From NCBI GenBank assembly GCA_964484945.1, contig CAZAHB010000002.1, positions 16-64,015 on the forward strand: a stretch of 64,000 nt of DNA. The letters run 5' to 3'. Both the position numbers and the translations under genes were made by a program. Origin of the DNA: an uncultured Armatimonadia bacterium (GTDB taxonomy: Bacteria; Armatimonadota; Zipacnadia; Zipacnadales; UBA5352). The notes below the pieces were generated by a model. The model searched no databases. It saw only the letters and a list, made by a program, of their open reading frames with translations, and was not told where the DNA came from. Position 1 is the stretch's first letter; the number at the start of each line of letters is the position of its first letter. Below, one piece after another: positions 2,880 through 61,642 of this stretch.

Positions 2880-3509
2880 CTATCGCGTGTAGGGCTCGTT
2901 GCCCAGACCGAAGGCCGCCTGCGCCGACTGCCACTTGGAGTGTCCGTCCAGATAGGCGAAGTTGGCGCCACCATTGTGCGGCGCTTCATTCTGCCCATTG
3001 TTGAAGCTCAAACGATCCGCGTACTCTTCAACCGTGCCACAGTAGCTGGGATAGTAGGCATACTGGTTGTAGCTCTCGTGGAAGAGGTAGATGCTGGAAA
3101 CTTCTTCGTGCTGGGCCAGTTTATCGCCGGAGAGAGCAGAGTTGTAGCCATACGAGCGCGGTGTAATCCCACGTGGTACGATCTCAGGGTGTGGCCGTCC
3201 GGCAGAGTCGTAGATGTGCGGAGTGTCGCGCCGTGACGGGCAGGCGTACACACCAAGATTCTTCACGTATGGATAAATACATATCTCCCAGTACCAACTG
3301 TGAGAATGAAATTCGTACCGAGGCAACTTCTCGTCGTAGTCCTGGATGTACTGCTGGAAGGCGAGGTTCAGCTGCTTCGTATTCGAAAGGCACTGCGTCT
3401 GGCGGGCCTTTTCCCGCGCCCGTGCGAAAACGGGGAAGAGGATAGCCGCCAGGATTGCGATAATCGCAATCACAACCAGCAACTCAATCAGGGTGAAGCC
3501 TTTCCGCAT
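2880..3509 (-). CDS. Prepilin-type N-terminal cleavage/methylation domain protein (DUF1559, H-X9-DG pseudopilin)
   Basis: The N-terminus [37 protein letters not shown] is a class-III signal and pilin-like helix. The C-terminal [13 protein letters not shown] is the H-X9-DG motif. Confidence 0.85.
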
Positions 3510-11061: not shown

Positions 11062-11243
11062 GGGTCTGTATCAACGATTAGGGGTTACGTTCACAGCGCG
11101 CGTTTGTCGTTCTCCCCCTCGTCCCGCCGGCGATGTCGTCTATCGCAATGGGAGAGGGGGGGAAGCGATGTCGTTTATCGCAGGCGGTGAGGCCCGGCCT
11201 GCCGACGCGTTGTGGGTCAACCCTTAGATTCTGATACGCACCC
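11062..11243. repeat. GC-rich palindromic repeat family 1, full-length copy in reverse orientation
   Basis: Its reverse complement aligns end to end with the copy at 37338..37528: gggtgcgtatcagaatcta...ggccgggcctcacc...cgatagacgacatcgc...gggcgggacgaggggg...ttgatacagaccc. Confidence 0.7.
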
Positions 11244-19371: not shown

Positions 19372-19455
19372 CCCCTAATTCTCAGTGAAGGTATTCTTCC
19401 CGGGCCAAAGGAAAAGTGTACAAACGCTCGACACGTCTCACAGGAGGTGTGTCCA

Positions 19456-20124
19456 ATGAAGCGAGGCTTCACCCTGATTGAGCTGCTCGTGGTGATTGCG
19501 ATCATCGCCATCCTGGCGGCGATCCTCTTCCCGGTCTTCGCAAGAGCGCGCGAGAAGGCCCGTCAAAGTTCATGTCTCAGCAACCTCAAGCAAATTGGCC
19601 TGGCGGGCCAGATGTACGCGCAGGACTACGATGAGACATTCAACCCCAGCGACCAGCATTGCGACCCGCCCAACTACGTCTGGAGCCAGCTTATCTACCC
19701 CTACGTCAAGAACGATCAGATCTTCATCTGCCCCAGCTTTGGCGGAGTACACACGTCCACCTGTGGCGCTGCCCACACCAAGCCCAGTTCATACGTGCAC
19801 GGCGGCTATGCCATCAACGCCTGGCGTGAGGTCGGCCAGGGTGGCACGACCACATACGGTCCCGGCCACGGCACCGGCCAGAAGCTGGCCGACATCGAAA
19901 CTCCTGCCGAGATCGTTTACGCCTGTGATCAGAGTACGGGAAGTGATGCGAGCAACTGCTTCCGTATCTCCGTTATGCGCCAGATGGTCGGTGGAAGTCT
20001 CTACGAGAACAATCAGAAGTACGCCGTCTCGTCGCGGCACAACGACGGCTTTAACGCGACCTTCTGCGATGGCCACGGCAAGTGGCTCAAGGAGCCCCTG
20101 CCGAAGTACTTCGGCGGCTCGTAA
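19456..20124 (+). CDS. Prepilin-type N-terminal cleavage/methylation domain protein (DUF1559)
   Basis: N-terminus [37 protein letters not shown]. The C-terminal [13 protein letters not shown] is H-X9-DG. The RBS caggaggtg precedes the ATG. Confidence 0.85.
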
Positions 20125-25947: not shown

Positions 25948-26069
25948 GATGAGTGAATGCCTCCCGCGACGGCTCGAGGACTGGCATCAATGTTCGACTC
26001 CGCGCGCCCATATCCCTACTTTTCCGGACAAATCGTGATACCAGAAGGATTTACGCAGCAACACAGCGA

Positions 26070-26140
26070 ATTCGGGGAATGATTCCGAACTTGGGAGGAT
26101 TCTCCGGAATCGTGCGGAATCATCTCCAGACACTCGCGCG
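26070..26140. repeat. Cluster of GGAATC/GATTCC palindromic motifs upstream of the excisionase-like gene
   Basis: gggaatgattccgaac...ggattctccggaatcgtgcggaatcatc carries three or four GGAAT(C) half-sites arranged as inverted repeats. Confidence 0.3.
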
Positions 26141-26254
26141 AAACAACGCATCGAAGGTCAGTCCACATCAATGCGTTGCGATGACAGCATACGAAATCTA
26201 ACGCACGGGCCGACATACACCGCGTCGGCCTTGCGATAATTCGGTTTTCAGGGA

Positions 26255-26464
26255 GTGTATACCATGGCCGTTGAAACTGATGTGATGACACTCGACGAGG
26301 CCGCCGCGTACCTGCGCGTGCATCCTCGCACACTGCGCATGAAGGCCAGCGAAGGGAAAATCCCCGGGGCGAAAATAGGACGCGTCTGGCGCTTCCACCG
26401 ACAGCAGCTTGAGACGTGGCTGCTGCAGGGCGGTGTGCGCTCAACCGCGGATGCCGCCGATTGA
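26255..26464 (+). CDS. Excisionase-family (MerR-like) helix-turn-helix DNA-binding protein
   Basis: MTLDEAAAYLRVHPRTLRMKASEGKIPGAKIGRVWRFHRQQLETWL matches the excisionase-type HTH_17 pattern (l.v.eaA.yLgvs..T...l...G.ip..kiGr.wrf....l..wl). Confidence 0.55.
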   Translation: MYTMAVETDVMTLDEAAAYLRVHPRTLRMKASEGKIPGAKIGRVWRFHRQQLETWLLQGGVRSTADAAD

Positions 26465-26632
26465 GCGGCGCCCTGCGAGGCAGTGGCAATGCGCCTTTGT
26501 ACGAAGATCAATTAATTCGACTGATCGACCGTCCGGTGGGGAACTGCACTGAGTTGTGACGGCTTCCTCCAGCAGGAGCGCTCAGAACTGGCGCCCGACG
26601 AGGATTGGCCCAGGAGGCAGGACACTTTCGGA

Positions 26633-27697
26633 ATGCCCGACTTTCAAGCTGATGCTGACAATGATATCGACCGAGAACCTCTCGTCCAGTACGAGGATCT
26701 CGAACAGGCCACCGGCTTCACTCAGGTAAGCAACGCCGTACTGCGCTGCTACCCGGAGTTGTCCGATGGCGAGAAGATGACGTACGCGGTCCTTAAGAGC
26801 TTCGCATACGTGGGGCCGGAAACATTTGTGGGCCAGGAGACTCTGGCGCGCGCTCGCGGGATCACTGTGTCCACCATCTCCCGTCATCTGACGCGCTTGA
26901 TTGAAGTGGGCCTGGTGAAAGTCCGCCGACGCGGACAGGGTAAAACGAACATCTGGATCATCACCCGCATCCCGCGTAAGAAGCTCGAGCAATATATCAA
27001 TGACTGGCGCCCGAAACTGAGCGCGAAGCCGCAATCTGAGAATCCGCAAACCCAGACTTCGCAGAATCCGCAAGTCAGCAATTTGCAGAATCCGCAAACC
27101 AAGAACCGGCAGGATCCGCAAGCAGAAGAACAAGAACGTCTAGAAGACGAAGATAAGCCTCAGGGGCGGAGCAGCCGCCCGCTGAACGGATCGTCTTCGA
27201 TGGGGGATAACCTCTCACCTGCGGCCCTCACTGCCGAGGATACCCCTCCGGACTCTGTACTGGAGGGCGTTGTGGAAAACTGGGATGGCATAAAAGGCAA
27301 GTTATCCACATCAGGGGAAACTGTGGAAAACCTCGCTGCGATCGCCGCTGAGTGTTTCGCAGTGCCCGAGGAAGAGCCGAACATCGCCGGCTATTTACGG
27401 CAATACGATAAAGAGATTGTGAAGTCGGCGCTTGCAACCGTCGTGCAACGTCTCAACCGCGGCCAATCCATTCGGAATCCCGTCGCTTACTTCTATACCG
27501 TTGTGCGGGTCGCGCAGGCCGAGAACGATGCCGCTCAGGCGGACGAGAAGCGCGACGAGAATGAAAAGCAGGTCATCGCCTGCAACTGGGCCCGCAGCCT
27601 CCTGCGCGAGTGGCCCGCAGATCAGGTGCGAGCCATTCTGATGGACACGTACCATTCGGACGAGTTCGTAGATACAGTGATGGATCAACTGGACTGA
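26633..27697 (+). CDS. Replication-initiator/replisome-organizer-like protein with N-terminal winged HTH and internal NPQ repeat linker
   Basis: LSDGEKMTYAVLKSFAYVGPETFVGQETLARARGITVSTISRHLTRLIEVGLVKVRRRGQGKTNIW is the phage/plasmid Rep-type HTH. The C-terminal NPVAYFYTVV resembles the DnaD-like C-terminus. The middle region is encoded by an about 24-nt tandem DNA repeat. Confidence 0.45.
   Translation: MPDFQADADNDIDREPLVQYEDLEQATGFTQVSNAVLRCYPELSDGEKMTYAVLKSFAYVGPETFVGQETLARARGITVSTISRHLTRLIEVGLVKVRRRGQGKTNIWIITRIPRKKLEQYINDWRPKLSAKPQSENPQTQTSQNPQVSNLQNPQTKNRQDPQAEEQERLEDEDKPQGRSSRPLNGSSSMGDNLSPAALTAEDTPPDSVLEGVVENWDGIKGKLSTSGETVENLAAIAAECFAVPEEEPNIAGYLRQYDKEIVKSALATVVQRLNRGQSIRNPVAYFYTVVRVAQAENDAAQADEKRDENEKQVIACNWARSLLREWPADQVRAILMDTYHSDEFVDTVMDQLD
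27040..27125 (+). repeat. About 4 tandem copies of GCAGAATCCGCAA (period 22-26 nt) inside the Rep-like gene
   Basis: gagaatccgcaaacccagacttcgcagaatccgcaagtcagcaatttgcagaatccgcaaaccaagaaccggcaggatccgcaagcag. It encodes ENPQTQTSQNPQVSNLQNPQTKNRQDPQ. Confidence 0.7.
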
Positions 27698-27722
27698 GAC
27701 ACGTGGAGGAGCTGTTCAGGGG

Positions 27723-28136
27723 ATGACTATCGGAAAACGTTTGCGCAGGGCACGTCGTGAGACGGGCCTCACAGACGATCAGCTTGCCGAGGAACTGGGG
27801 GTGGAAGTCAGCACACTGCGCGCCTGGGAGCTTGAAGTCGAAACACCATCCGACGAGCAGCTTCAGCGCCTCGCTGAACTGGTCAACATGGATGGCGAGA
27901 CTCTCTCCCACCTTGCTGCCAGCCCCGCCCCCCAGGGCATCTGCAGTGCCGTGGATCTCGTCCCCGATCGCTCACAGGCGGAGGCTCTTGAACAGGTTGG
28001 CCTCCCTCCCGAGCTGTGGGACGATCCGGATCGCTGGGTCGCGTTTCTGCGCCTCGCAGCCGCGGCGGCCGATCTCTCCCCGGATGAGATCTCGCGCCTT
28101 GCCCGCGAGGCCGAGACGTGTGTCGTGGGGGACTAA
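27723..28136 (+). CDS. XRE-family helix-turn-helix transcriptional regulator
   Basis: MTIGKRLRRARRETGLTDDQLAEELGVEVSTLRAWE is a Cro/C1 HTH. Confidence 0.55.
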   Translation: MTIGKRLRRARRETGLTDDQLAEELGVEVSTLRAWELEVETPSDEQLQRLAELVNMDGETLSHLAASPAPQGICSAVDLVPDRSQAEALEQVGLPPELWDDPDRWVAFLRLAAAAADLSPDEISRLAREAETCVVGD

Positions 28137-28143
28137 TGTAGAA

Positions 28144-28232
28144 CTATACAGCCTCAAACCTATACAGCTAGAAGGGCCACAGCCCGTGAAGGTAAAGGTT
28201 TAGCCGCGAAACTTATACAGGGCTATACACAG
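28144..28232 (+). repeat. Four direct repeats of (A)AC(C/T)TATACAG (iteron-like), with a fifth copy at 28877
   Basis: ctatacag at 28144 and 28160, cttatacag at 28212, ctatacacag at 28223, and aagctatacag at 28877. The first four are just downstream of the XRE and Rep-like genes. The fifth lies on the far side of the rhodanese gene. Confidence 0.6.
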
Positions 28233-28393
28233 GTAATGGTCTGCTCAAGACCCGGGAGTAACAACACAGGCCGCATTGAAACAGTGGTGATTCAGAACCA
28301 ATGATTGTTTCAGACACGAAACCGCGAACAACCCGTCCGAAGAACGTCTGTCCAAACCCGCCGCTGCGACATGCTCGACTGATCCTCAGAACC

Positions 28394-28795
28394 ATGGCCG
28401 TAGCGTGTCTCGCCTTTGCTGTTGCGATCCTGTCTGGTTGTGAGGGGTCAAGCTCATCGCTGGTCTCCCCCACCGTGCAGGACATCTCAGGCAGCGAACT
28501 GGAGACACTTCTTGACGGGCCGAACGCACCGGTGGTCGTGGATGTGCGAAGCAGCACCGACTTCGAAAGCGGTCACATTCCGGGGTCGGTGAACATTCCT
28601 CTCAGTGAATTGCCCGAACGACTCCATGAGGTCAATGACGAGAGGGCGATTGTCTGTGTGTGTGCGGGTGGCTTCAGAAGCGCCCAGGCGGCACAGATCC
28701 TCGCGGCCGCGGGGGTTGAAACGGTCTACAACCTCGAGGACGGTCTCCGGTCGTATGAGGGACCATGGGAACCGGACTGCCCCAGTTGCGGGTAG
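28394..28795 (+). CDS. Rhodanese-domain lipoprotein (sulfurtransferase-like)
   Basis: Lipobox MAVACLAFAVAILSGC. The rhodanese fold motifs are VVVDVRSSTDFESGHIPGSVNIP and the active-site loop CVCAGGFRS. Confidence 0.7.
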   Translation: MAVACLAFAVAILSGCEGSSSSLVSPTVQDISGSELETLLDGPNAPVVVDVRSSTDFESGHIPGSVNIPLSELPERLHEVNDERAIVCVCAGGFRSAQAAQILAAAGVETVYNLEDGLRSYEGPWEPDCPSCG

Positions 28796-28888
28796 AAGTA
28801 TGCAAGCGAAGGCTACACAAACCTGCACAGTAAGTGGCTGGGTAAGCCGCAGATCGTGGAGGTGTGCCGCGTAAAGCTATACAGAAAG

Positions 28889-29356
28889 TCAGCCCAGCCG
28901 GCGCAGGATTTCGACCACCTCGCCATAAAAAACGCCGTGCGAGCGCAGTGCTTTCACGTCGGCGCTACTCGTAGGCGAGATTAGACCAAGGAGAAGGTGC
29001 CCAGTCGAGAGAGTCGGTTTGTTGGCCTCACCGCGTGCCGCCGCCACGGTCGTTCTGCGTGCCTCCACCTGGGCGATCTGGAGGGACCGGCGGGCCGGGT
29101 CACTGAGGCGCAGTTCATCTGGTTGATCACAGTCACCGGGGCCGGCGGGGGATGTTGTACGAAGGGTCTCAGCAAGATCGAGCACATCGATGCCCATGCT
29201 CTCGAGGACCGTAGCGGCAAGCGACGTATTGTCCGCGAGAATGCCGAGGGCTATGTGGTGCGGGGTAATCTGATGAGAACCGTCCTGCCGCGCGGTGTCT
29301 TCAGCGGCGAGAAGAGCCCGGCGGGCCTCATCGGACAGACCGATCGAAAGTTCCAC
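28889..29356 (-). CDS. Clp N-terminal (Clp_N) repeat-domain protein
   Basis: Two Clp_N-like repeats (QITPHHIALGILADNTSLAATVLESMGIDV and TLSTGHLLLGLISP...DVKALRSHGV) in a 155-aa protein. Confidence 0.55.
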   Translation of the reverse strand: MELSIGLSDEARRALLAAEDTARQDGSHQITPHHIALGILADNTSLAATVLESMGIDVLDLAETLRTTSPAGPGDCDQPDELRLSDPARRSLQIAQVEARRTTVAAARGEANKPTLSTGHLLLGLISPTSSADVKALRSHGVFYGEVVEILRRLG

Positions 29357-29449
29357 AGCATCTGATCCCCTGCAAGGTCATTCGATAGCAGGCGCGGCGT
29401 CCGGGCAGATCCTTCGCCCGGTGGCAGTGGTATTCGCCGCCTGCCCCAA

Positions 29450-31456: not shown

Positions 31457-31550
31457 GGCCCCACCCCCCTGCGATAGACGACATCGCTTTCCCCCCTCCC
31501 CCTGGACGCCGCAAACGGCGCGGCGTCAGGCGGGAGAGGGGGGCAACGGC
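31457..31550. repeat. GC-rich palindromic repeat family 1, core-only copy
   Basis: ggccccacccccctgcgatagacgacatcgctttcccccctccccctggacgccgcaaacggcgcggcgtcaggcgggagaggggggcaacgg shares the cgatagacgacatcgc and ccctcccc...ggggagg palindromes with other copies. Confidence 0.6.
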
Positions 31551-31584
31551 CAGGGGCGGCCGGGGGGCGGGATGTCGTTGCCCA

Positions 31585-31652
31585 GCCGTTTGGAGGGCCA
31601 AACCCCGCCGCAGGCGTGGGTCGCTACGTCCCCGCCCGCGGGCTACGCTTCC
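31585..31652. repeat. Repeat family 2 (gccgtttggag...ggctacg.ccccgccc), copy 1
   Basis: gccgtttggagggccaaaccccgccgcaggcgtgggtcgctacgtccccgcccgcgggctacgc parallels 52063..52100, gccgtttggagagagcggggctacgaccccgcccgg. Confidence 0.45.
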
Positions 31653-31740
31653 CCGTCGGCTTCACCCTCCCCACCCTCACCCAACTCGCGCCGCATCTGC
31701 TGTATCTGCGCGAGGAGTTCGACCGCGGCGGCGAGGTTGG

Positions 31741-31889
31741 CGGCTGCCGGGCCTCACCCCCCTCGGTCCCCCCTCTCCCTGCTTCCTGACGCTGCAAACG
31801 GCGCAGCGTCAGGCGGGACGAGGGGGGAGGAACGGCCACTGCGTACTGCAAGAGGGAGGATCGCTATACCGGACTCGTGATACGGAGCC
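31741..31889. repeat. GC-rich palindromic repeat family 1, copy with variant right end (gtgatacggagcc)
   Basis: cggctgccgggcctcacccccc...ctgacgctgcaaacggcgcagcgtcaggcgggacgaggggggaggaacggccactgcgtactgcaagaggga...gtgatacggagcc. It lies in tandem with the copy at 31457, separated by the family-2 repeat. Confidence 0.65.
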
Positions 31890-37241: not shown

Positions 37242-37337
37242 GGCAGATGCCTCCCGTCTGGAGTCGTGGTTGGAATGAGGTTCACCCTTCGGGAGGAAAT
37301 CCCCTTTTATCCTGGCGCCCGCTACACATTGCAAGGA

Positions 37338-37528
37338 GCGTATCAGAATCTAATGGGTTGACCCACAACGCGTCGGCAGGCCGGGCCTCACCCCCCTGCG
37401 ATAAACGACATCGCTTCCCCCCCTCTCCCTGGCGATAGACGACATCGCGGGCGGGACGAGGGGGGAGGAACGGTAACTGCGTACCGCAAGAGGGAAGTAT
37501 CGCCATCCATAACTCTTAATACGGACCC
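37338..37528. repeat. GC-rich palindromic repeat family 1, full-length reference copy (about 190 bp)
   Basis: gcgtatcagaatctaatgggttgacccacaacgcgtcggcaggccgggcctcacccccctgcgataaacgacatcgcttccccccctctccctggcgatagacgacatcgcgggcgggacgaggggggaggaacggtaactgcgtaccgcaagagggaagtatcgccatccataactcttaatacggaccc. The ends are imperfect inverted repeats (GCGTATCAGAA / TTAATACGGACCC). Confidence 0.7.
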
Positions 37529-39527: not shown

Positions 39528-40043
39528 TGTTCGTGCGCTCATCTGGCACCAGCAGACGCCGGACCGGAAAAAGCAATGGCGGACAGCATAGCAGGATGGA
39601 CAGGATGAACAGGAGAGGACGATGGCGGCCGCATCTGGGCCTGCCGGGCGGGATACGTCTTTGCGGACGGTAAGGGCAGCGGTCTCACGCGCGCGGCGCC
39701 CTCAATCCCGAGGCGGAAGCGGGCTCCAATCGGCGGCAGGTGTGGTCGAACAAATGTTTCACGTGAAACATTGACCGATAACGCATTATACCGTTTTGCC
39801 AGCAAAAGGGCCCCGTGGTCGATAACGGTATTCCCAGGCAGTACGCCATATTCCAGAGATCGGGAGCGAGGCAAGCTCAGACGACGGGGAAAGAGTTTCT
39901 GGTGTCCACGTCCAGCCAGGTCGCCGAAGGTCCATTGGCGTCAGCGGTGTGGGGCCGCCGCAGTCCCGCCACCGGGTGGGAAAGCAGTTGCGCGTGGGCG
40001 GTCGTGCAGGCTCCGCCCAGGGCTCCACGCCGACCCGCAGGCC

Positions 40044-44910: not shown

Positions 44911-45348
44911 TCAGTCGCGCCGCAGGTCGTCCGCCGCCGCCTGGAGGTCATCGAGCCCATGGCGGATGGCGAAGTCCGCAATCGCCGACTTACTTGTCTT
45001 CACATCGTATTCCGTCAGGAGGCGGAACTTGACCTCCTCGAGCATGTGCGCAACCGGCTCAGTCAGGTAGAGGGTCACCGCTTCCTTGGGTCCCTCCTGC
45101 GCGGGCGGCCGCCCGATGCGCGAGTTGTCTGAGTTCGCGCCATCGGAGGAAGTTTCCTTCTCCCGCGTGGCCTGCTGCGGCGGAGGATCGTTACGCCGAG
45201 GTTGCTCCATCGACCTGGCGAGCACCTCGCCATCAGTGCCGCGCTCAGGCTGCTTTTCGGGTTCTTCGTCCGGCTCATCTTCAGGCTGCCCATCATCCGA
45301 GGTGACATCGAAGAATACGTCCTCGGGGATCTCCGGTCGCTTACGCAC
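44911..45348 (-). CDS. Small acidic protein with C-terminal ribbon-helix-helix-like segment (ParG-like partner of ParA?)
   Basis: The N-terminal 90 residues are Glu/Asp/Pro-rich. The C-terminal EAVTLYLTEPVAHMLEEVKFRL...SKSAIADFAIRHGL fits a beta-strand, helix, helix RHH. Its start overlaps the parA stop by 8 nt. Confidence 0.4.
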   Translation of the reverse strand: MRKRPEIPEDVFFDVTSDDGQPEDEPDEEPEKQPERGTDGEVLARSMEQPRRNDPPPQQATREKETSSDGANSDNSRIGRPPAQEGPKEAVTLYLTEPVAHMLEEVKFRLLTEYDVKTSKSAIADFAIRHGLDDLQAAADDLRRD

Positions 45349-46093
45349 GGTCGATCACCTCCTGAGCAAGTTCGCGGTAGGCTTCGGCGCCGCGGCTGTC
45401 GGGCCGAAGATGCACCAGCGGTGTGCTGGCGACGGTCGCGTAATCGAAGGCGACAGTTCGCGGAATTACCGTGTCGAACACCTGGTCGCCGAAATGCTCC
45501 TTCAGACGGTTGGATACCTCTTCGGCGTGAACCGTTCGCGCATCGTACATGGTTAGTAAAAGTCCCAGGATCTCGAGGTCAGAGTTGGCGCGGTTGCGGA
45601 CGCCCTCGACGGTGCGCAGAAGCTGCTGGAGCCCTTTCATCGCGAGGAACGCGCACTGGACCGGGATCAGCAGTTCATCCGCGGCGGTGAGAGCGTTGAT
45701 CGTAAGAAAGCCCAGGCTCGGCGGGGTGTCGATGAGCACGATTGTGCCCTCGGCAACGCCATCGAGCTTGTCCGCAAGGCGCGACTGACGTCGCTCGGCC
45801 CCGGCGAGTTTCGCCTCCGCAGCGGCGAGGGCGTACTCGGCAGGGGCTACGAGCAGGTTCTCGAAGGGTGTGGGCTGGACGATCTCGCGCAGGTCCACGT
45901 CAGGTGAGAGCAGAAGATCGTGGGTGCTCAGCTCAACCTCGTCGGCGCCGGAGATGCCGGTGAGATTGGCCTGGGGGTCGAGGTCGATGAGGATGACCCT
46001 CTCCCCCATTTCGGCGAGGGCGGCGCCGAGGTTGAGGACACTGGCTGTCTTACCAACCCCGCCTTTCTGGTTGGCAACGGCGATGGCGCGCAT
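45341..46093 (-). CDS. parA: ParA/Soj-family partition ATPase
   Basis: Deviant Walker A AVANQKGGVGKTAS. ParA blocks are LIDLDPQANLT and IVLIDTPPSLGFLTINAL. The start is set at MRAIAV (46093). Confidence 0.85.
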   Translation of the reverse strand: MRAIAVANQKGGVGKTASVLNLGAALAEMGERVILIDLDPQANLTGISGADEVELSTHDLLLSPDVDLREIVQPTPFENLLVAPAEYALAAAEAKLAGAERRQSRLADKLDGVAEGTIVLIDTPPSLGFLTINALTAADELLIPVQCAFLAMKGLQQLLRTVEGVRNRANSDLEILGLLLTMYDARTVHAEEVSNRLKEHFGDQVFDTVIPRTVAFDYATVASTPLVHLRPDSRGAEAYRELAQEVIDRA

Positions 46094-46159
46094 GGCATAT
46101 CCTCCCTTGATGATGCCGGCGGCAGCCGGCGTGCTGCGATCATTGCCACAGCCTGACGA

Positions 46160-46560
46160 TCGACGCCATCTTAGCAGCATAGCGTCATGCCGTCAAACAG
46201 CTTCCCTGTTATAGTTGTACAGCGTTATGCTGTCAGGCCATGAACGAAGTAAGGGGTTAAGACATTAAAACAGGGATCGGATGGGCCTGCGCATTATGCT
46301 GTTATAACATGGAAAGACGGCGTATAGCAGCAGAAAGACGCGTCATGGCATATGGCGCGATTTAGAGGAATAATGTTTTAACAGCATAAGTGCACGATGG
46401 CGAATGGTCGGGCTGAGAACCGCACCTGCTGGCAAGAGTAGAAAACGAGAAAACAGCAAAACGGTAGAACCCGATAACAGTACAACAGCAGAAGCTTAAA
46501 AGGCAAAAACGAGGGCTCGTTAGAGAGGGATAAGCCGGGCGGTGGCGGAGTAGAAGGGAT
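46160..46560. repeat. AT-rich region with iterated ACAGCAT/ATGCTGT-containing repeats (candidate centromere-like/iteron site) upstream of parA
   Basis: GC content is markedly lower than the surroundings. The motifs are ttagcagcatagcgtcatgcc, cgttatgctgtcagg, cattatgctgttataacatgg, tagcagcagaaagacgcgtcatggc and ttttaacagcataagtg. Confidence 0.5.
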
Positions 46561-46564
46561 GGAG

Positions 46565-46769
46565 GGTTTGTATCAAAAGTCTAATGATTGTCTTCTGCCG
46601 TGCTGCGGCTGCCGGGCCTCACCCCCCTGCGATAAACGACATCGCTTTCCCCCCTCTCCCTTGTCCCGCCGAAACGGCAGGCGGGACTGGCGGGACGAGG
46701 GGGGAGGAACGACAACTGCGTCCCTGCAACAGGGAATTATCGCTATCCTTAACTCTTGATACGGACCCC
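46565..46769. repeat. GC-rich palindromic repeat family 1, full-length copy with cccgccgaaacggcaggcggg inner hairpin
   Basis: gggtttgtatcaaaagtctaatg...gctgccgggcctcacccccctgcgataaacgacatcgc...cccgccgaaacggcaggcggg...gggacgaggggggaggaacgacaactgcgtccctgcaacagggaattatcgctatccttaactcttgatacggaccc. Confidence 0.7.
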
Positions 46770-46817
46770 GGGGATGGAGGCGGCATTGGGGCGCGAGTGG
46801 AAGAATGGAGTGCACGA

Positions 46818-49088
46818 GTGAAGACGGGTGGATCGGATGCGGGGTTGGTGAGTCGAGTGAAGATCGACAGAATTCTCAGTCTGGACGGGGCGGGGGCATA
46901 CCCGGGGCGCGGTACGATTGACATGGTGATGTACCTGGGGTGCTTCCGAGGGTCGGTCGTGCGGCTGTGGGTCTTTACGGATGCCGAAAGTCCGGTAGTG
47001 CGTATCGATGAGCACCAGTTCGAGGTGGTGGGAGACGCGGGAGAGCGCGAAGGCGGGATGCGGTGGCTGGATCTGGGCGTGACGGATGGACTGGATGCGC
47101 GGTTCGGACAGTTGCGGATCGAAGGCATGACGATGCGCCAGGCGCAGAATGCGAGGCTGTTGATCACGCGGGATGTGGACCTGGAGGTCGAGGGATCGCT
47201 GGGGGATGCCGAGGAGGCTGTGTTCGGGATACGTCGGTGCAACGCCGGGCATACGACCCTCAGTCCGCAGCGCGTGGAGGTGGGGGAGAGCGCGTCATTT
47301 GAGGGCACATACACTGCAGGCGCTGAGGGACTTCCCGCTGGCGCGCGAGTTCGTTTCGCGGTGCCCCGGGCCTTCTCCCGGCCGCAGATGGATGACGCGG
47401 AGACGCCCGGATACACCTCCGTGCAGGGCGTCGGGCCGGGCGGGGAAGAGGTAGACGTGCGGGTGGAGTCGGCCGATCTCTCCGAGGATGGGCACGAGGA
47501 AGTTGACATCATCTGCCTGCTGCCGGAGGGTATAGGAGCCGGTGGGCGCGTGATTGTGCGGTATGAGACGGCGGAGATGTACATCTTCCCGTGGCAGCGC
47601 GATGCGGTTGAGCGGCCGATGTGGTTTGCGCACCTGGCACCGCTGGCGGCGGCCGTGGCGGTGGATGAGCGGAGGCGCTGGGTGGAGCTGTTGCCGGAAA
47701 ACAGTCACGTGTTCGAGACGGTGCACGGGCCGGCCGAGCGCCTGCACCTGATGCTGCCGGGGCAGGTGCATGCGGGCGAGGAGGTCTCGCTGCAGGGGAT
47801 CTTCACCGACCGGTTCCGCAATGTGCCGGACGCGCGCGGGATCCCGTCGCGCGTGCGACTTACGATCGAGGACGAAGCGGGGGAGAGGGGCATGGGAACA
47901 CCGCGCGGGAGGTTCACTGCCCCGCATCGCTTCACGATGCCCCTGGGGCGAATGGACCCGGGTCTGTATCGGATCCGCGCATGGGACGCCGACACCGGTG
48001 ATCTGCTCGCCCGGAGCAATCCGATGCGGGTGCTGAATGAGGATGATGAGCGACTGAATGTGTACTGGGGGGAGATCCACGGGCACACGGAGATGAGCGA
48101 TGGCAGCGGCGGGTTCGAGGCGATGTTCCGCCACGCCCGTGACGAGGGCGCCCAGGATTTCGCTGCAGCCGCCGATCACGCCTGCTACTTCACCGACAAC
48201 GAGTGGGAGTGGATGCAGGATGTGGTGAACTCATTCAACGAGCGCGGGACGTTCGTGGCCTTACTGGGCTATGAGTGGGCCGGCAAGCAGGGCCATCGGT
48301 GTATTTATGCGCGGGGTCGAAGCATGCGGTTGTTTCGGGGGATGTGCGAGGGAGAGGACACGCTGGACGTGGTCTACGATCACTTCCACGACGATGATAC
48401 TGTTGTGGCGGGGCCGCACCATACGGGCGCGAACGGCCGGATGCAGGTCCACGATCCGACGATTGAGCGGTTCATCGAGATCTACTCCATGTGGGGCGCG
48501 AGTGACCGTATCGGCTCACCGAAGGCGCCGTTGTTTCCGGGGAAGCACCCGTTGCCGGCGCACCAGTGGCTGAATGAGGGCGCGAAACTTGGCTTCACGG
48601 GTGGGGGAGACTGCCATGAGGGGAAGAGCGGATGGTCTCCGGAGGATCCTGACGGGCAGGGCACGGCGCTTCACGGCTTTGCGCGGCAGTTGCGCTACCG
48701 CTGCGGGATGACCGCCGCACTGATGCCACAGTTGCGCCGGCGGCATCTGATCGAGGCCCTGCGGGAGCGGAAGACGTGGGCCACGACGGGAGCGCGGATT
48801 CTGCTGGAGTTCGAGGCCTCCGGCGTGCAGATGGGTGATGAGGGGGCAGCGGATACGATCGAGGTGAACGCGACGGTTCACGGCGCCGAAGCCCTGCGGC
48901 GGCTGGAGATTATCCGCGACGGCGAGGTGGTCTGGACCGAGGAGATCGAGGGGCTGGACGCGGAGCTTCAGTGGACCGACCCGGAGCCGGTGGGGGAGAG
49001 GACGACCTGGCTTTACCTGCACGTGATCCAGCGAGACGGCGAGGAGGCGTGGTCCTCGCCGATCTGGTTGACCGCCGGTGACCAGTGA
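46818..49088 (+). CDS. DUF3604-family protein (PHP-like metal-dependent phosphoesterase domain)
   Basis: NVYWGEIHGHTEMSDGSG is the PHP/DUF3604 His-cluster motif. The start is uncertain: GTG at 46818 or ATG at 46923. The ORF-track start at 46584 lies inside a repeat element and is rejected. Confidence 0.5.
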   Translation: MKTGGSDAGLVSRVKIDRILSLDGAGAYPGRGTIDMVMYLGCFRGSVVRLWVFTDAESPVVRIDEHQFEVVGDAGEREGGMRWLDLGVTDGLDARFGQLRIEGMTMRQAQNARLLITRDVDLEVEGSLGDAEEAVFGIRRCNAGHTTLSPQRVEVGESASFEGTYTAGAEGLPAGARVRFAVPRAFSRPQMDDAETPGYTSVQGVGPGGEEVDVRVESADLSEDGHEEVDIICLLPEGIGAGGRVIVRYETAEMYIFPWQRDAVERPMWFAHLAPLAAAVAVDERRRWVELLPENSHVFETVHGPAERLHLMLPGQVHAGEEVSLQGIFTDRFRNVPDARGIPSRVRLTIEDEAGERGMGTPRGRFTAPHRFTMPLGRMDPGLYRIRAWDADTGDLLARSNPMRVLNEDDERLNVYWGEIHGHTEMSDGSGGFEAMFRHARDEGAQDFAAAADHACYFTDNEWEWMQDVVNSFNERGTFVALLGYEWAGKQGHRCIYARGRSMRLFRGMCEGEDTLDVVYDHFHDDDTVVAGPHHTGANGRMQVHDPTIERFIEIYSMWGASDRIGSPKAPLFPGKHPLPAHQWLNEGAKLGFTGGGDCHEGKSGWSPEDPDGQGTALHGFARQLRYRCGMTAALMPQLRRRHLIEALRERKTWATTGARILLEFEASGVQMGDEGAADTIEVNATVHGAEALRRLEIIRDGEVVWTEEIEGLDAELQWTDPEPVGERTTWLYLHVIQRDGEEAWSSPIWLTAGDQ

Positions 49089-56085: not shown

Positions 56086-56691
56086 ATGAGGCGACGAGGG
56101 TTTACCCTAATCGAATTGCTGGTTGTGATTGCGATTATCGCGATCCTGGCCGCAATCCTGTTCCCGGTTTTCGCCCGGGCGCGGGAGAAGGCCCGACAAT
56201 CGAGTTGTTCGAGTAACGTCAAGCAGATTTGTCTGGCGGTGCACATGTACGTCCAGGACTACGATGAGAGGATGCCCATGGCGGTTGCCGGTGTTCCGCC
56301 GGCGATCTGGACATTCGAGGAGCTGCTCAATCCGTACATCAAGAACGAGCAGCTCTGGGACTGCCCCAGCAAGCCGCGGTCGGTAGACCTGTCGCAGCTT
56401 GGAAAGCCTAATGTGAGCTACATGGTCGATGTCGGTACACCATTCCCGTCAGGATCGAGCACAGGTCGCCTGTTCGGCGCACCGGCGGCAGGGACGTCCT
56501 CATGCAGCCTGGCCCAGATCGAGCAGCCGGCCACTACTCCGATCATGTGTGATGCAGAGGGCTCTGTAGATGCCTCCTTCACAATCGACATCAGCGAGGC
56601 TCCGCGGCATAATGACGGCTGCAACTACGGCTTTGCGGACGGTCACGTAAAGTGGGATCGACCCGAGAAGATTGATATCAGACTGGAGTAG
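56086..56691 (+). CDS. Prepilin-type N-terminal cleavage/methylation domain protein (DUF1559)
   Basis: N-terminus [38 protein letters not shown]. The C-terminal [13 protein letters not shown] is H-X9-DG. Confidence 0.85.
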
Positions 56692-56730: not shown

Positions 56731-56839
56731 CGCCCCTCCCCTGCGATAGACGACATCGCTGGCGGGACGAGGGGGGAGGAACGGCAACTGCGTACTGCAA
56801 GAGGGAATTATCGCTACTATTGACTTTTGATACGGACCC
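56731..56839. repeat. GC-rich palindromic repeat family 1, 5'-truncated copy
   Basis: cgcccctcccctgcgatagacgacatcgctggcgggacgaggggggaggaacggcaactgcgtactgcaagagggaattatcgctactattgacttttgatacggaccc. Confidence 0.65.
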
Positions 56840-60997: not shown

Positions 60998-61642
60998 ATG
61001 AGCACACGTCGAGGATTTACCCTTATCGAACTGCTGGTTGTCATCGCGATCATCGCGATCCTGGCAGCAATTCTGTTCCCTGTGTTCGCGCGTGCGCGCG
61101 AGAAGGCGCGGCAGACGTCCTGTCTTTCTAATGTAAAGCAGATCGGGACCGCGCTGATGATGTACGTTCAGGACTATGATGAGATGATGCCGCAGTATCT
61201 CATCCCCACCGGTCGGAGCCTCCAGCCGGACCTTCCCGACATTGGGTACGATCATACTGTCTGGCAGGACCGCCTCTATCCGTACGTGAAGAACTGGCAG
61301 GTGTGGGTCTGCCCCAGCGGTGGTGGCTACAGCGGCACTGCACGCGAATATCAGGGCTCGTACGCCGGCAACTACCGGTACGTCTTCTCTCACTGGGACG
61401 ACTGGACCTACAGTCTCGCGGACTTCACCCATCCAGCGGAAACTTTTACGGTCCTCGAGGGCACCAGTTACATCACCCGCTACGACCCCGGCATCCCATC
61501 GTCCAGTGGTGGCTACTGGGGCCAGCTTGACTCGCGGCACAATGACCAGAACAACGTTCTTTTCCTGGACGGCCACGCCAAGACCCAGCACGACCGGGTC
61601 GTCTCGCCCCAGTCCCCCAACTGGACTGGCGATTTCGAATGA
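60998..61642 (+). CDS. Prepilin-type N-terminal cleavage/methylation domain protein (DUF1559)
   Basis: N-terminus [39 protein letters not shown]. The C-terminal [13 protein letters not shown] is H-X9-DG. Confidence 0.85.

Follow-up and report, generated by a model that had tools for sequence, protein, structure and literature searches.

Ribbon-helix-helix (RHH) proteins that bind iterated centromere sites are textbook knowledge in plasmid biology, and examples are established on archaeal chromosomes as well. In the type Ib system delta/omega of plasmid pSM19035, the RHH protein omega, a repressor that also binds the centromere, coats tandem or inverted heptads upstream of promoters, and the same sites act as operator and as parS. 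The operators of MetJ, which have no partition role, consist of 2–5 tandem met boxes of 8 bp, with one RHH dimer on each box and cooperative contacts between neighbours. Here we describe a parA locus in a 64,000-nucleotide stretch of DNA from an uncultured Armatimonadia bacterium (the whole stretch is called the window below), in which an AT-rich island at 46160–46560 is built of degenerate boxes in 8-bp phase. The plasmid system to be compared with it is that of TP228, where 20 degenerate ACTC boxes with 4-bp spacers, and thus with an 8-bp period, lie upstream of parFG, 8 of them in OF and 12 in parH (PMC3130281). One dimer of the RHH protein ParG binds each box, the boxes are coated cooperatively, both blocks are active as centromeres, and the N-terminal tails of ParG stimulate ParF (PMC3130281). 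Among chromosomes, the nearest RHH case is SegAB of the archaeon Sulfolobus: the RHH protein SegB stimulates SegA through its disordered N-terminus, it has two palindromic sites upstream of segA, and its dimers form a higher-order complex (PMC8682754). According to reviews, all bacterial chromosomal centromere-binding proteins are helix-turn-helix (HTH) ParBs (PMC5002424).

The locus shares with TP228 a gene for a small Walker ATPase, followed by a small gene for a protein whose N-terminal tail is flexible and whose C-terminal domain is probably of RHH type, and about 20 degenerate upstream boxes with a strict 8-bp period, in mixed orientation, divided into promoter-overlapping and distal blocks. 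It differs in the box core, which is (A/T)TAAC and not ACTC, in spacers that are G-rich and not AT-rich, and in the extent of the arrays (~350 bp in four clusters versus ~160 bp). Furthermore, the ATPase is nearest to chromosomal Soj and not to ParF, the partner has no detectable similarity to ParG, and the context is conserved and chromosome-like, with a canonical parS. Overall, the locus resembles a type Ib partition site but departs from that class in plasmid location, box sequence and ATPase clade. The likeness to SegAB is functional and architectural, as a ParA-type ATPase in a chromosome-like context is combined with a lineage-specific, probable RHH partner and with sites just upstream of the ATPase gene; however, SegAB is archaeal, and long phased arrays stand here in place of the two palindromic sites of SegB. 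The omega system has a 7-bp period instead of 8 bp and is plasmid-borne, with omega as a global plasmid regulator, and the sequence of the MetJ boxes is unrelated to that of the island. As in canonical ParABS (Soj/Spo0J), there is a Soj-like ATPase and a perfect TGTTTCACGTGAAACA 6.4 kb away, but no ParB gene (ParBc/HTH, about 280 aa) lies next to parA and the island contains no parS-like sequence. By analogy with parH and OF of TP228, we favour, with some reserve, the reading that the island is an autoregulatory operator combined with a centromere-like array for the 145-aa product of the gene after parA.

Phased 8-bp boxes upstream of parA

An earlier note on this DNA had described the island as an AT-rich stretch with iterated motifs in a genome of very high GC. 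Computing the local GC showed 48.9% in the island versus 63.5% across the window, and both the lowest-GC 300-bp stretch (46209–46508, 45.7%) and the lowest-GC 400-bp stretch (46195–46594, 47.0%) of the 64 kb fall here. The island is thus AT-rich as claimed, but "very high" is too strong a word for 63.5%. The iterated motifs are equally real and occur in both orientations: ACAGCATAA/TTATGCTGT has exactly three copies in 64 kb, at 46225 (−), 46294 (−) and 46381 (+), all of them inside the island, which also holds two one-mismatch copies (46453 and 46485). When the island was dinucleotide-shuffled 2000 times, a strand-collapsed 9-mer with at least three copies arose in 7 cases. Of the gcgtcatg repeats reported alongside, the sequence GCGTCATG is indeed present twice (46182 and 46340) but is not significant by itself. 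Its first copy lies within the spacer of the parA promoter, and the repeat can be ascribed to what appears to be a partial duplicate of the promoter core (46171–46191) at 46323–46349 (ATAGCAGCAG...GCGTCATGGC), with a 7-nt insertion; a promoter scan found no convincing second promoter there. The first motif copy named in the earlier note, TTAGCAGCATA (46171–46181), is also inside the parA promoter.

The motif turned out to be a partial view of an 8-bp unit, since ACAGCATAA is the overlap of two frames (..AC followed by AGCATAA.). The family consensus of this unit is GGYATAAC, with the local forms AGCATAAC, GTTATAAC and GCAAAAC; its core is (A/T)TAAC, and the positions before the core are G-rich. 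The island contains about 20–25 degenerate boxes in four clusters over ~350 bp, all in 8-bp phase. Self-identity of the island at lag 8 is 0.399 versus 0.264 ± 0.022 in dinucleotide shuffles (z = 6.2), a value reached in 0 of 2000 shuffles, and the other lags from 5 to 12 are at background in the same test. Autocorrelation peaks at lags 8, 16 and 24 (z = 6.1, 3.3 and 3.1, respectively). Both motifs and phasing hence exceed what AT-rich sequence yields by shuffling. The distal array listed below scores highest for lag-8 identity among all 80-nt stretches of the 64 kb (0.58 versus a mean of 0.258, sd 0.053), with the proximal array in third place, and sites matching a position weight matrix (PWM) of the unit number 20 per 400 bp in the island versus a window mean of 2.0 ± 2.0. 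The signal of the island consists of phasing and degenerate boxes rather than of a sharp word. The arrays and the promoter that they meet are arranged as follows.

46094–46160, minus strand: parA leader, from the approximate transcription start to the ATG

46168–46196, minus strand: sigma-70 promoter of parA, with −35 TTGACG (46196–46191), a 17-nt spacer and the extended −10 TGcTAAGAT (−10 at 46173–46168)

46192–46271, minus strand: proximal array, 10 consecutive 8-bp frames on the parA strand that run into the −35; on the minus strand the frames read GTTTTAAT GTCTTAAC CCCTTACT TCGTTCAT GGCCTGAC AGCATAAC GCTGTACA ACTATAAC AGGGAAGC TGTTTGAC

46293–46308: middle doublet 1, ATTATGCT then GTTATAAC, an inverted pair with a palindromic unit

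46367–46390, plus strand: middle trio 2, GGAATAAT GTTTTAAC AGCATAAG

46431–46510, plus strand: distal array, 10 consecutive 8-bp frames in the orientation opposite to the proximal array; on the plus strand the frames read GGCAAGAG TAGAAAAC GAGAAAAC AGCAAAAC GGTAGAAC CCGATAAC AGTACAAC AGCAGAAG CTTAAAAG GCAAAAAC

As its last frame, TGTTTGAC, contains the −35, the proximal array is a candidate operator, and the distal array is a candidate centromere-like block. Between them, middle trio 2 pairs with 46294–46310 as a 17-nt inverted repeat with 94% complementarity. The promoter scan gave the parA promoter 9 of 12 consensus matches plus the TG extension. A conserved sigma-70 promoter for the divergent gene could not be established within the distal array.

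To follow the arrays in relatives, we used 40 related Armatimonadota loci that were fetched with the partner protein (L001–L040), and 22 upstream regions among them for the array statistics. The promoter pattern TTGAC-17-TAnnnT aligns in all 23 loci long enough to reach it. Lag-8 z scores of 3.4–6.3 were found in 20 of the 22 upstream regions, and the PWM, iterated over the loci, converges on GGYATAAC, with 305 sites in the 22 regions versus 82 ± 7 in shuffles. Pairs of sites on the same strand are spaced by 8, 16, 24, 32 and 40 bp in 61, 43, 33, 31 and 25 cases, respectively, and every other spacing occurs 0–8 times. The density of runs of three sites in phase is ~24 times higher upstream of parA than in the rest of 187 kb of related loci. 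The layout is also kept, with a cluster beside the −35, doublets ~100 and ~190 bp upstream of the −35, and a distal cluster; the latter mostly faces away from parA and lies ~90–160 bp from the start of the divergent gene. Middle doublet 1 stays at its position as TTATGCTGGCATAAT or TTTTGCCATTATAAT. Upstream of the promoter the sequence between the boxes drifts, yet it stays built of 8-bp units. The earlier note had named loss of the region from close relatives that retain parA as a reason for doubt, and this objection does not apply, as the phased arrays are kept upstream of parA.

These data bear on the simplest alternative, that the AT-rich patch came in by horizontal transfer or is in decay, and that its repeats are functionless. 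A genome-specific repeat element inserted alongside the island would suit such an origin, but arrays, promoter and the long divergent gap are kept in about 20 relatives with ParA proteins 60–90% identical (a range that holds for 38 related loci) while the inter-box sequence drifts, and the shuffle tests argue against chance. We regard a chance or mobile-DNA remnant as hardly credible.

The parA leader is also conserved (MAFFT, 19–20 loci). It carries a duplicated CGCAGCA ~12 nt apart, a GC-rich palindrome GCCGGC...GCCGGC and a ribosome-binding site. The leader is better conserved than the arrays, and the palindrome stands immediately before the ribosome-binding site. RNAalifold detected no consensus RNA structure in the aligned leaders. 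An RNA reading of the region was discarded: Rfam gave no match at gathering thresholds, and at E ≤ 1 only hairpin noise in the repeat element that follows the island.

ParA and its 145-residue partner

The proteins encoded around the island were then compared with known families. The three genes that matter here are the following.

45341–46093, minus strand: parA, a Soj-type Walker ATPase of 250 aa with the deviant Walker A motif KGGVGKT

44911–45348, minus strand: partner gene, 145 aa, with a GTG start and an 8-nt overlap with the parA stop

46848–49088, plus strand: divergent CehA/McbA-type (PHP-like, DUF3604) metallohydrolase (NCBIfam NF038032, E = 1.4e-27)

The parA ATG is at 46093, with GGAGGA just before it, and the island is directly upstream of parA, as had been stated. 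ParA matches Pfam AAA_31 over residues 2–176 (E = 1.8e-49) and has no N-terminal HTH or extra N-terminal domain; with 250 aa versus ~200–260 aa it also has the size of type Ib ATPases. Its best solved relatives are 8RAY, a ParA family protein (2.2e-51), and T. thermophilus Soj, 1WCV (4.8e-51), and by sequence comparison it groups closest to chromosomal Soj proteins. The partner gene is translationally coupled to parA. On the other side of the gap, the real start of the metallohydrolase is near GTG 46848 or 46857, and homologues align from residue ~89 of the long open reading frame (ORF).

The partner belongs to a family of 78 clusters at 90% identity, with 65 representatives among 1.84 billion proteins, and every named homologue comes from metagenome-assembled genomes (MAGs) of Armatimonadota, including the class Zipacnadia (PMC10290634). 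Searches for a Pfam, NCBIfam or PDB sequence match to the partner gave none. Its N-terminus, MRKRPEIPEDVFFD, is conserved and basic, with the family pattern M[RK][KR]xP[ED]IPxDxFF. This peptide may resemble the extreme N-termini of SopB (MKRAPVIP...) and P1 ParB (..KKNRPTIG..), which contact their ParA proteins. The peptide is followed by a disordered linker that is variable, acidic and of low confidence in the model. The C-terminal pattern K-x3-VTxYL-...-LE..R..LL-EHGVK-SKSxI..AL runs strand-helix-helix as in RHH proteins.

Evidence for an RHH fold is mixed. With hhalign, the partner aligned to CopG over strand, helix A and helix B (E = 1.3e-4, probability 53%), the CopG query being an approximate sequence, and RHH_1 and RHH_3 are recurrent but weak Pfam matches among distant family members. 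The same tool detected no similarity to ParG, again with an approximate query. An AlphaFold2 (AF2) model of the C-terminal domain reached a predicted local distance difference test (pLDDT) score of 82, but the monomer forms no strand, and no structural neighbour of the model was significant. Taken together, the sequence comparisons make an RHH fold of the C-terminus probable. Across loci, neither the putative ribbon VTLYLT nor the box core TAAC varies. An apparent covariation between ribbon and box (K-Y/S-P versus K-V-A against T versus A at position 4) came from three loci only and was biased by the PWM, and we did not count it.

In our proposed mechanism, the sigma-70 promoter TTGACG-17-TGcTAAGAT would drive parA together with the coupled 145-aa gene. 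The 145-aa protein would most likely bind one 8-bp box per dimer through its RHH domain, and adjacent dimers, touching at the 8-bp spacing, would most likely coat the arrays cooperatively. Filled boxes near the promoter would repress the operon and thereby provide autoregulation. The coated region would show many N-terminal peptides (MRKRPEIPEDVFFD) to nucleoid-bound ParA-ATP and stimulate its ATPase, and the locus would thereby become a cargo of centromere type, like those of type Ib plasmid systems (TP228 ParF/ParG/parH-OF) and of archaeal SegAB.

ParA-like ATPases do not always move DNA. Across the 40 loci the shared gene order is CehA/DUF3604-type hydrolase, divergent gap, parA, partner and SLBB polysaccharide-export gene, and in nearly all of them a 971-aa SLBB/Wza-like export gene comes after the parA-partner pair. 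ATPase and partner might accordingly position a protein machine such as this exporter, in the manner of McdAB or BcsQ-type systems, with the boxes only setting expression. It is common for orphan ParAs to position cargos other than DNA (PMC9178275), and in S. pneumoniae ParB cooperates with a ParA-like capsule kinase (PMC7022226). However, functionally unrelated genes on both flanks are syntenic too, so the exporter linkage may only reflect general synteny. Furthermore, the C-terminus of the partner is of a DNA-binding type, its putative sites also occur beside parS, and ParA is Soj-like and not like a bacterial tyrosine kinase (BY-kinase) or BcsQ. We therefore rate a non-DNA cargo as quite improbable.

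The parS site and a possible division of labour with ParB

Two features outside the island, and arrays inside the partner gene of relatives, bear on the role of the boxes. The latter are given with the coordinates of the respective loci.

39755–39770, in a convergent intergenic gap: perfect canonical ParB-type parS TGTTTCACGTGAAACA, 16/16 match

39785–39808: secondary trio of phased units, ATTATACC GTTTTGCC AGCAAAAG, 14 bp from parS in a gap without promoter

L013 4939–4978, L031 2072–2095, L033 1618–1649, L034 303–326, L036 161–192 and L037 3470–3493: phased arrays within the partner gene

The parS site corresponds to the canonical consensus, and parS marks origin-proximal DNA (PMC7022226). 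It is the sole match in the window even at 3 mismatches, and the island contains no match to the 16-bp parS TGTTNCACGTGAAACA at the same tolerance. Three consecutive phased PWM sites occur at three places in the 64 kb, two in the island and the third at 39785–39808. A trio 10–25 bp from a perfect parS was also found in L005 (8407–8430 and 8441–8456) and L009 (3395–3418 and 3443–3458). The site at 39.79 kb is convincing because of the three-in-phase criterion and the conserved pairing with parS. The 11-mer GCAAAACGGTA that it shares with the island was not used as evidence, since at this scale chance alone would yield a match of that length. Six loci that belong to a divergent subclade have a phased array of 3–6 units, e.g. 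GTTAAAAC GGCAAAAG GCTAAAAC, inside the linker-coding region of the partner itself. Such arrays recall the parS sites that are located inside parB genes.

The pairing of parS and trio indicates that the region is origin-proximal, and the perfect parS points to a classical ParB in these genomes. This ParB is not encoded by the gene after parA, whose product has 145 aa and no ParBc or HTH domain match, and no ParBc protein was found among the about 45 window ORFs scanned. From the trio beside parS, we infer that the small protein would act at or beside ParB-parS complexes.

The serious rival to our reading is that the island is an operator only. The small protein or another regulator would repress the divergent parA and metallohydrolase promoters, the Soj-type ParA and a classical ParB at parS would segregate the DNA, and the island would have no centromere role. 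Such an arrangement fits the proximal array that runs into the −35, the distal array that points to the divergent gene close to its start in relatives, the perfect and conserved canonical parS, which leads one to expect ParB, and the similarity of ParA to chromosomal Soj. Repression, however, needs far less than about 20–25 boxes in four clusters over 350 bp. The phased trios in the promoter-less convergent gap by parS (three genomes) and the arrays within the partner coding region (six divergent loci) cannot be promoter operators and therefore favour an architectural role. A plain repressor also has no need of the conserved N-terminal peptide and disordered linker, which are as in ParA-activating adaptors, and the TP228 operator is itself active as a centromere (PMC3130281). 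Weighing both sides, we find it rather unlikely that the island is nothing but an operator.

Several points nevertheless weigh against a combined operator and centromere. Exact GGYATAAC is not enriched in the window, and the boxes found here are degenerate. Training of the PWM used the very regions where its sites were then counted; the lag-8 and spacing statistics are independent of it. The island itself, the promoter consensus and the 8-bp phasing with their conservation, the syntenic gene pair and the domain layout of the partner are shown, whereas binding of the boxes by the partner, cooperative coating, repression, stimulation of ParA and segregation are deduced by analogy. Genes on the contig include those for hisD, PEPCK, a formyltransferase and a PAS histidine kinase as well as many for glycan degradation, and synteny of both flanks of the locus extends to up to 40 loci, which come from many MAGs. 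Hence the locus is on a chromosome-like and not a plasmid contig, unlike type Ib systems, and because of this context centromere function cannot simply be carried over from their plasmids. Finally, with a perfect parS 6.4 kb away, ParB could be the real partner of the Soj-like ParA and the small protein a mere repressor. How ParB and the small protein would share the work is the main uncertainty of the proposed operator-centromere reading.

A further, more tentative possibility combines the two systems. In such a hybrid form of chromosome segregation, an origin-proximal Soj-type ParA would work with an RHH operon partner that sits on phased arrays and beside parS, alongside ParB or replacing it in activating ParA. 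This is conceivable, but we would not expect it.

Replicon context and meaning of the locus

The earlier note had left open whether the island is a centromere and operator or a replication origin. The former part finds support in sequence and comparison, and the latter does not. An oriC or DNA-unwinding element beside parA would agree with the most AT-rich 300–400 bp of the window, with a position between divergent genes, and with the nearby parS that marks origin-proximal DNA (PMC7022226). Yet none of the 10 window matches to the DnaA box TTATCCACA (at most 1 mismatch) lies within 46097–46848, the only cluster of DnaA-box-like 9-mers (three) is at 27271–27330, and the 8-bp unit is unrelated to DnaA boxes or DnaA-trios. 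In addition, strand-controlled GC skew is positive to either side of the island for genes of both orientations, with the sign change near 26 kb, and dnaA and dnaN were not found among the window ORFs scanned. An origin in the island thus appears very improbable.

A low-GC patch at 25950–29400 is either an integrated element or the origin of this replicon, and is a better origin candidate than the island. It carries an excisionase-like HTH ORF (~26265–26463), an HTH_36 Rep-like protein (26633–27697) and an XRE regulator, and CTATACAG occurs in it three times (28144, 28160 and 28877). The Rep-like gene holds the three DnaA-box-like 9-mers, within 60 bp (27271–27330), and GC skew turns from negative to positive near 26 kb. 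Given the Rep-like gene and the skew switch, the contig may be a secondary replicon.

A repeat element does follow the island, as had been noted.

46564–46768, plus strand: "family-1" element of ~205 bp, resembling a miniature inverted-repeat transposable element (MITE), with 17-nt terminal inverted repeats at 46564–46580 and 46752–46768 (GGGTYYGTATCAARAGT)

The element contains an internal GC-rich hairpin. Further copies are at 37330–37528, 56738–56839, 31457–31889 and 11114–11198 (minus strand), with partial copies at 1922–1961 and 153–171, and copies always lie just upstream of, and co-oriented with, mostly glycan-related genes, to which the element might supply promoter or 5′-untranslated region (5′-UTR) functions. 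It is genome-specific, being absent from all 40 related loci, and is an insertion unrelated to the arrays. Because of this insertion, the divergent gap is ~220 bp longer here, with roughly 750 bp versus 500–700 bp (roughly 530 bp) in relatives. Elsewhere in the window we observed a MazF/PemK toxin gene with an upstream antitoxin-like gene (2098–2813) and four paralogous prepilin-type (N_methyl + DUF1559) genes (2880–3509, 19447–20124, 56086–56691 and 60998–61642).

The locus joins a Soj-type ParA and an unannotated RHH-like family in a vertically inherited, chromosome-like context of an uncultured phylum, and its 8-bp phased arrays are unusually extensive. Even on the conservative reading, an unannotated protein family would obtain a function and a binding-site model. 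If the function proposed here is true, the locus would offer a case in which replacement of, or cooperation between, partners in bacterial chromosome segregation can be tested directly, and in vitro work could draw on a defined pair of DNA core (TAAC) and protein ribbon (VTLYLT). If the hybrid system is true, archaeal SegAB would have a counterpart in bacteria, and the rule that bacterial chromosomes use HTH ParBs only would have an exception.

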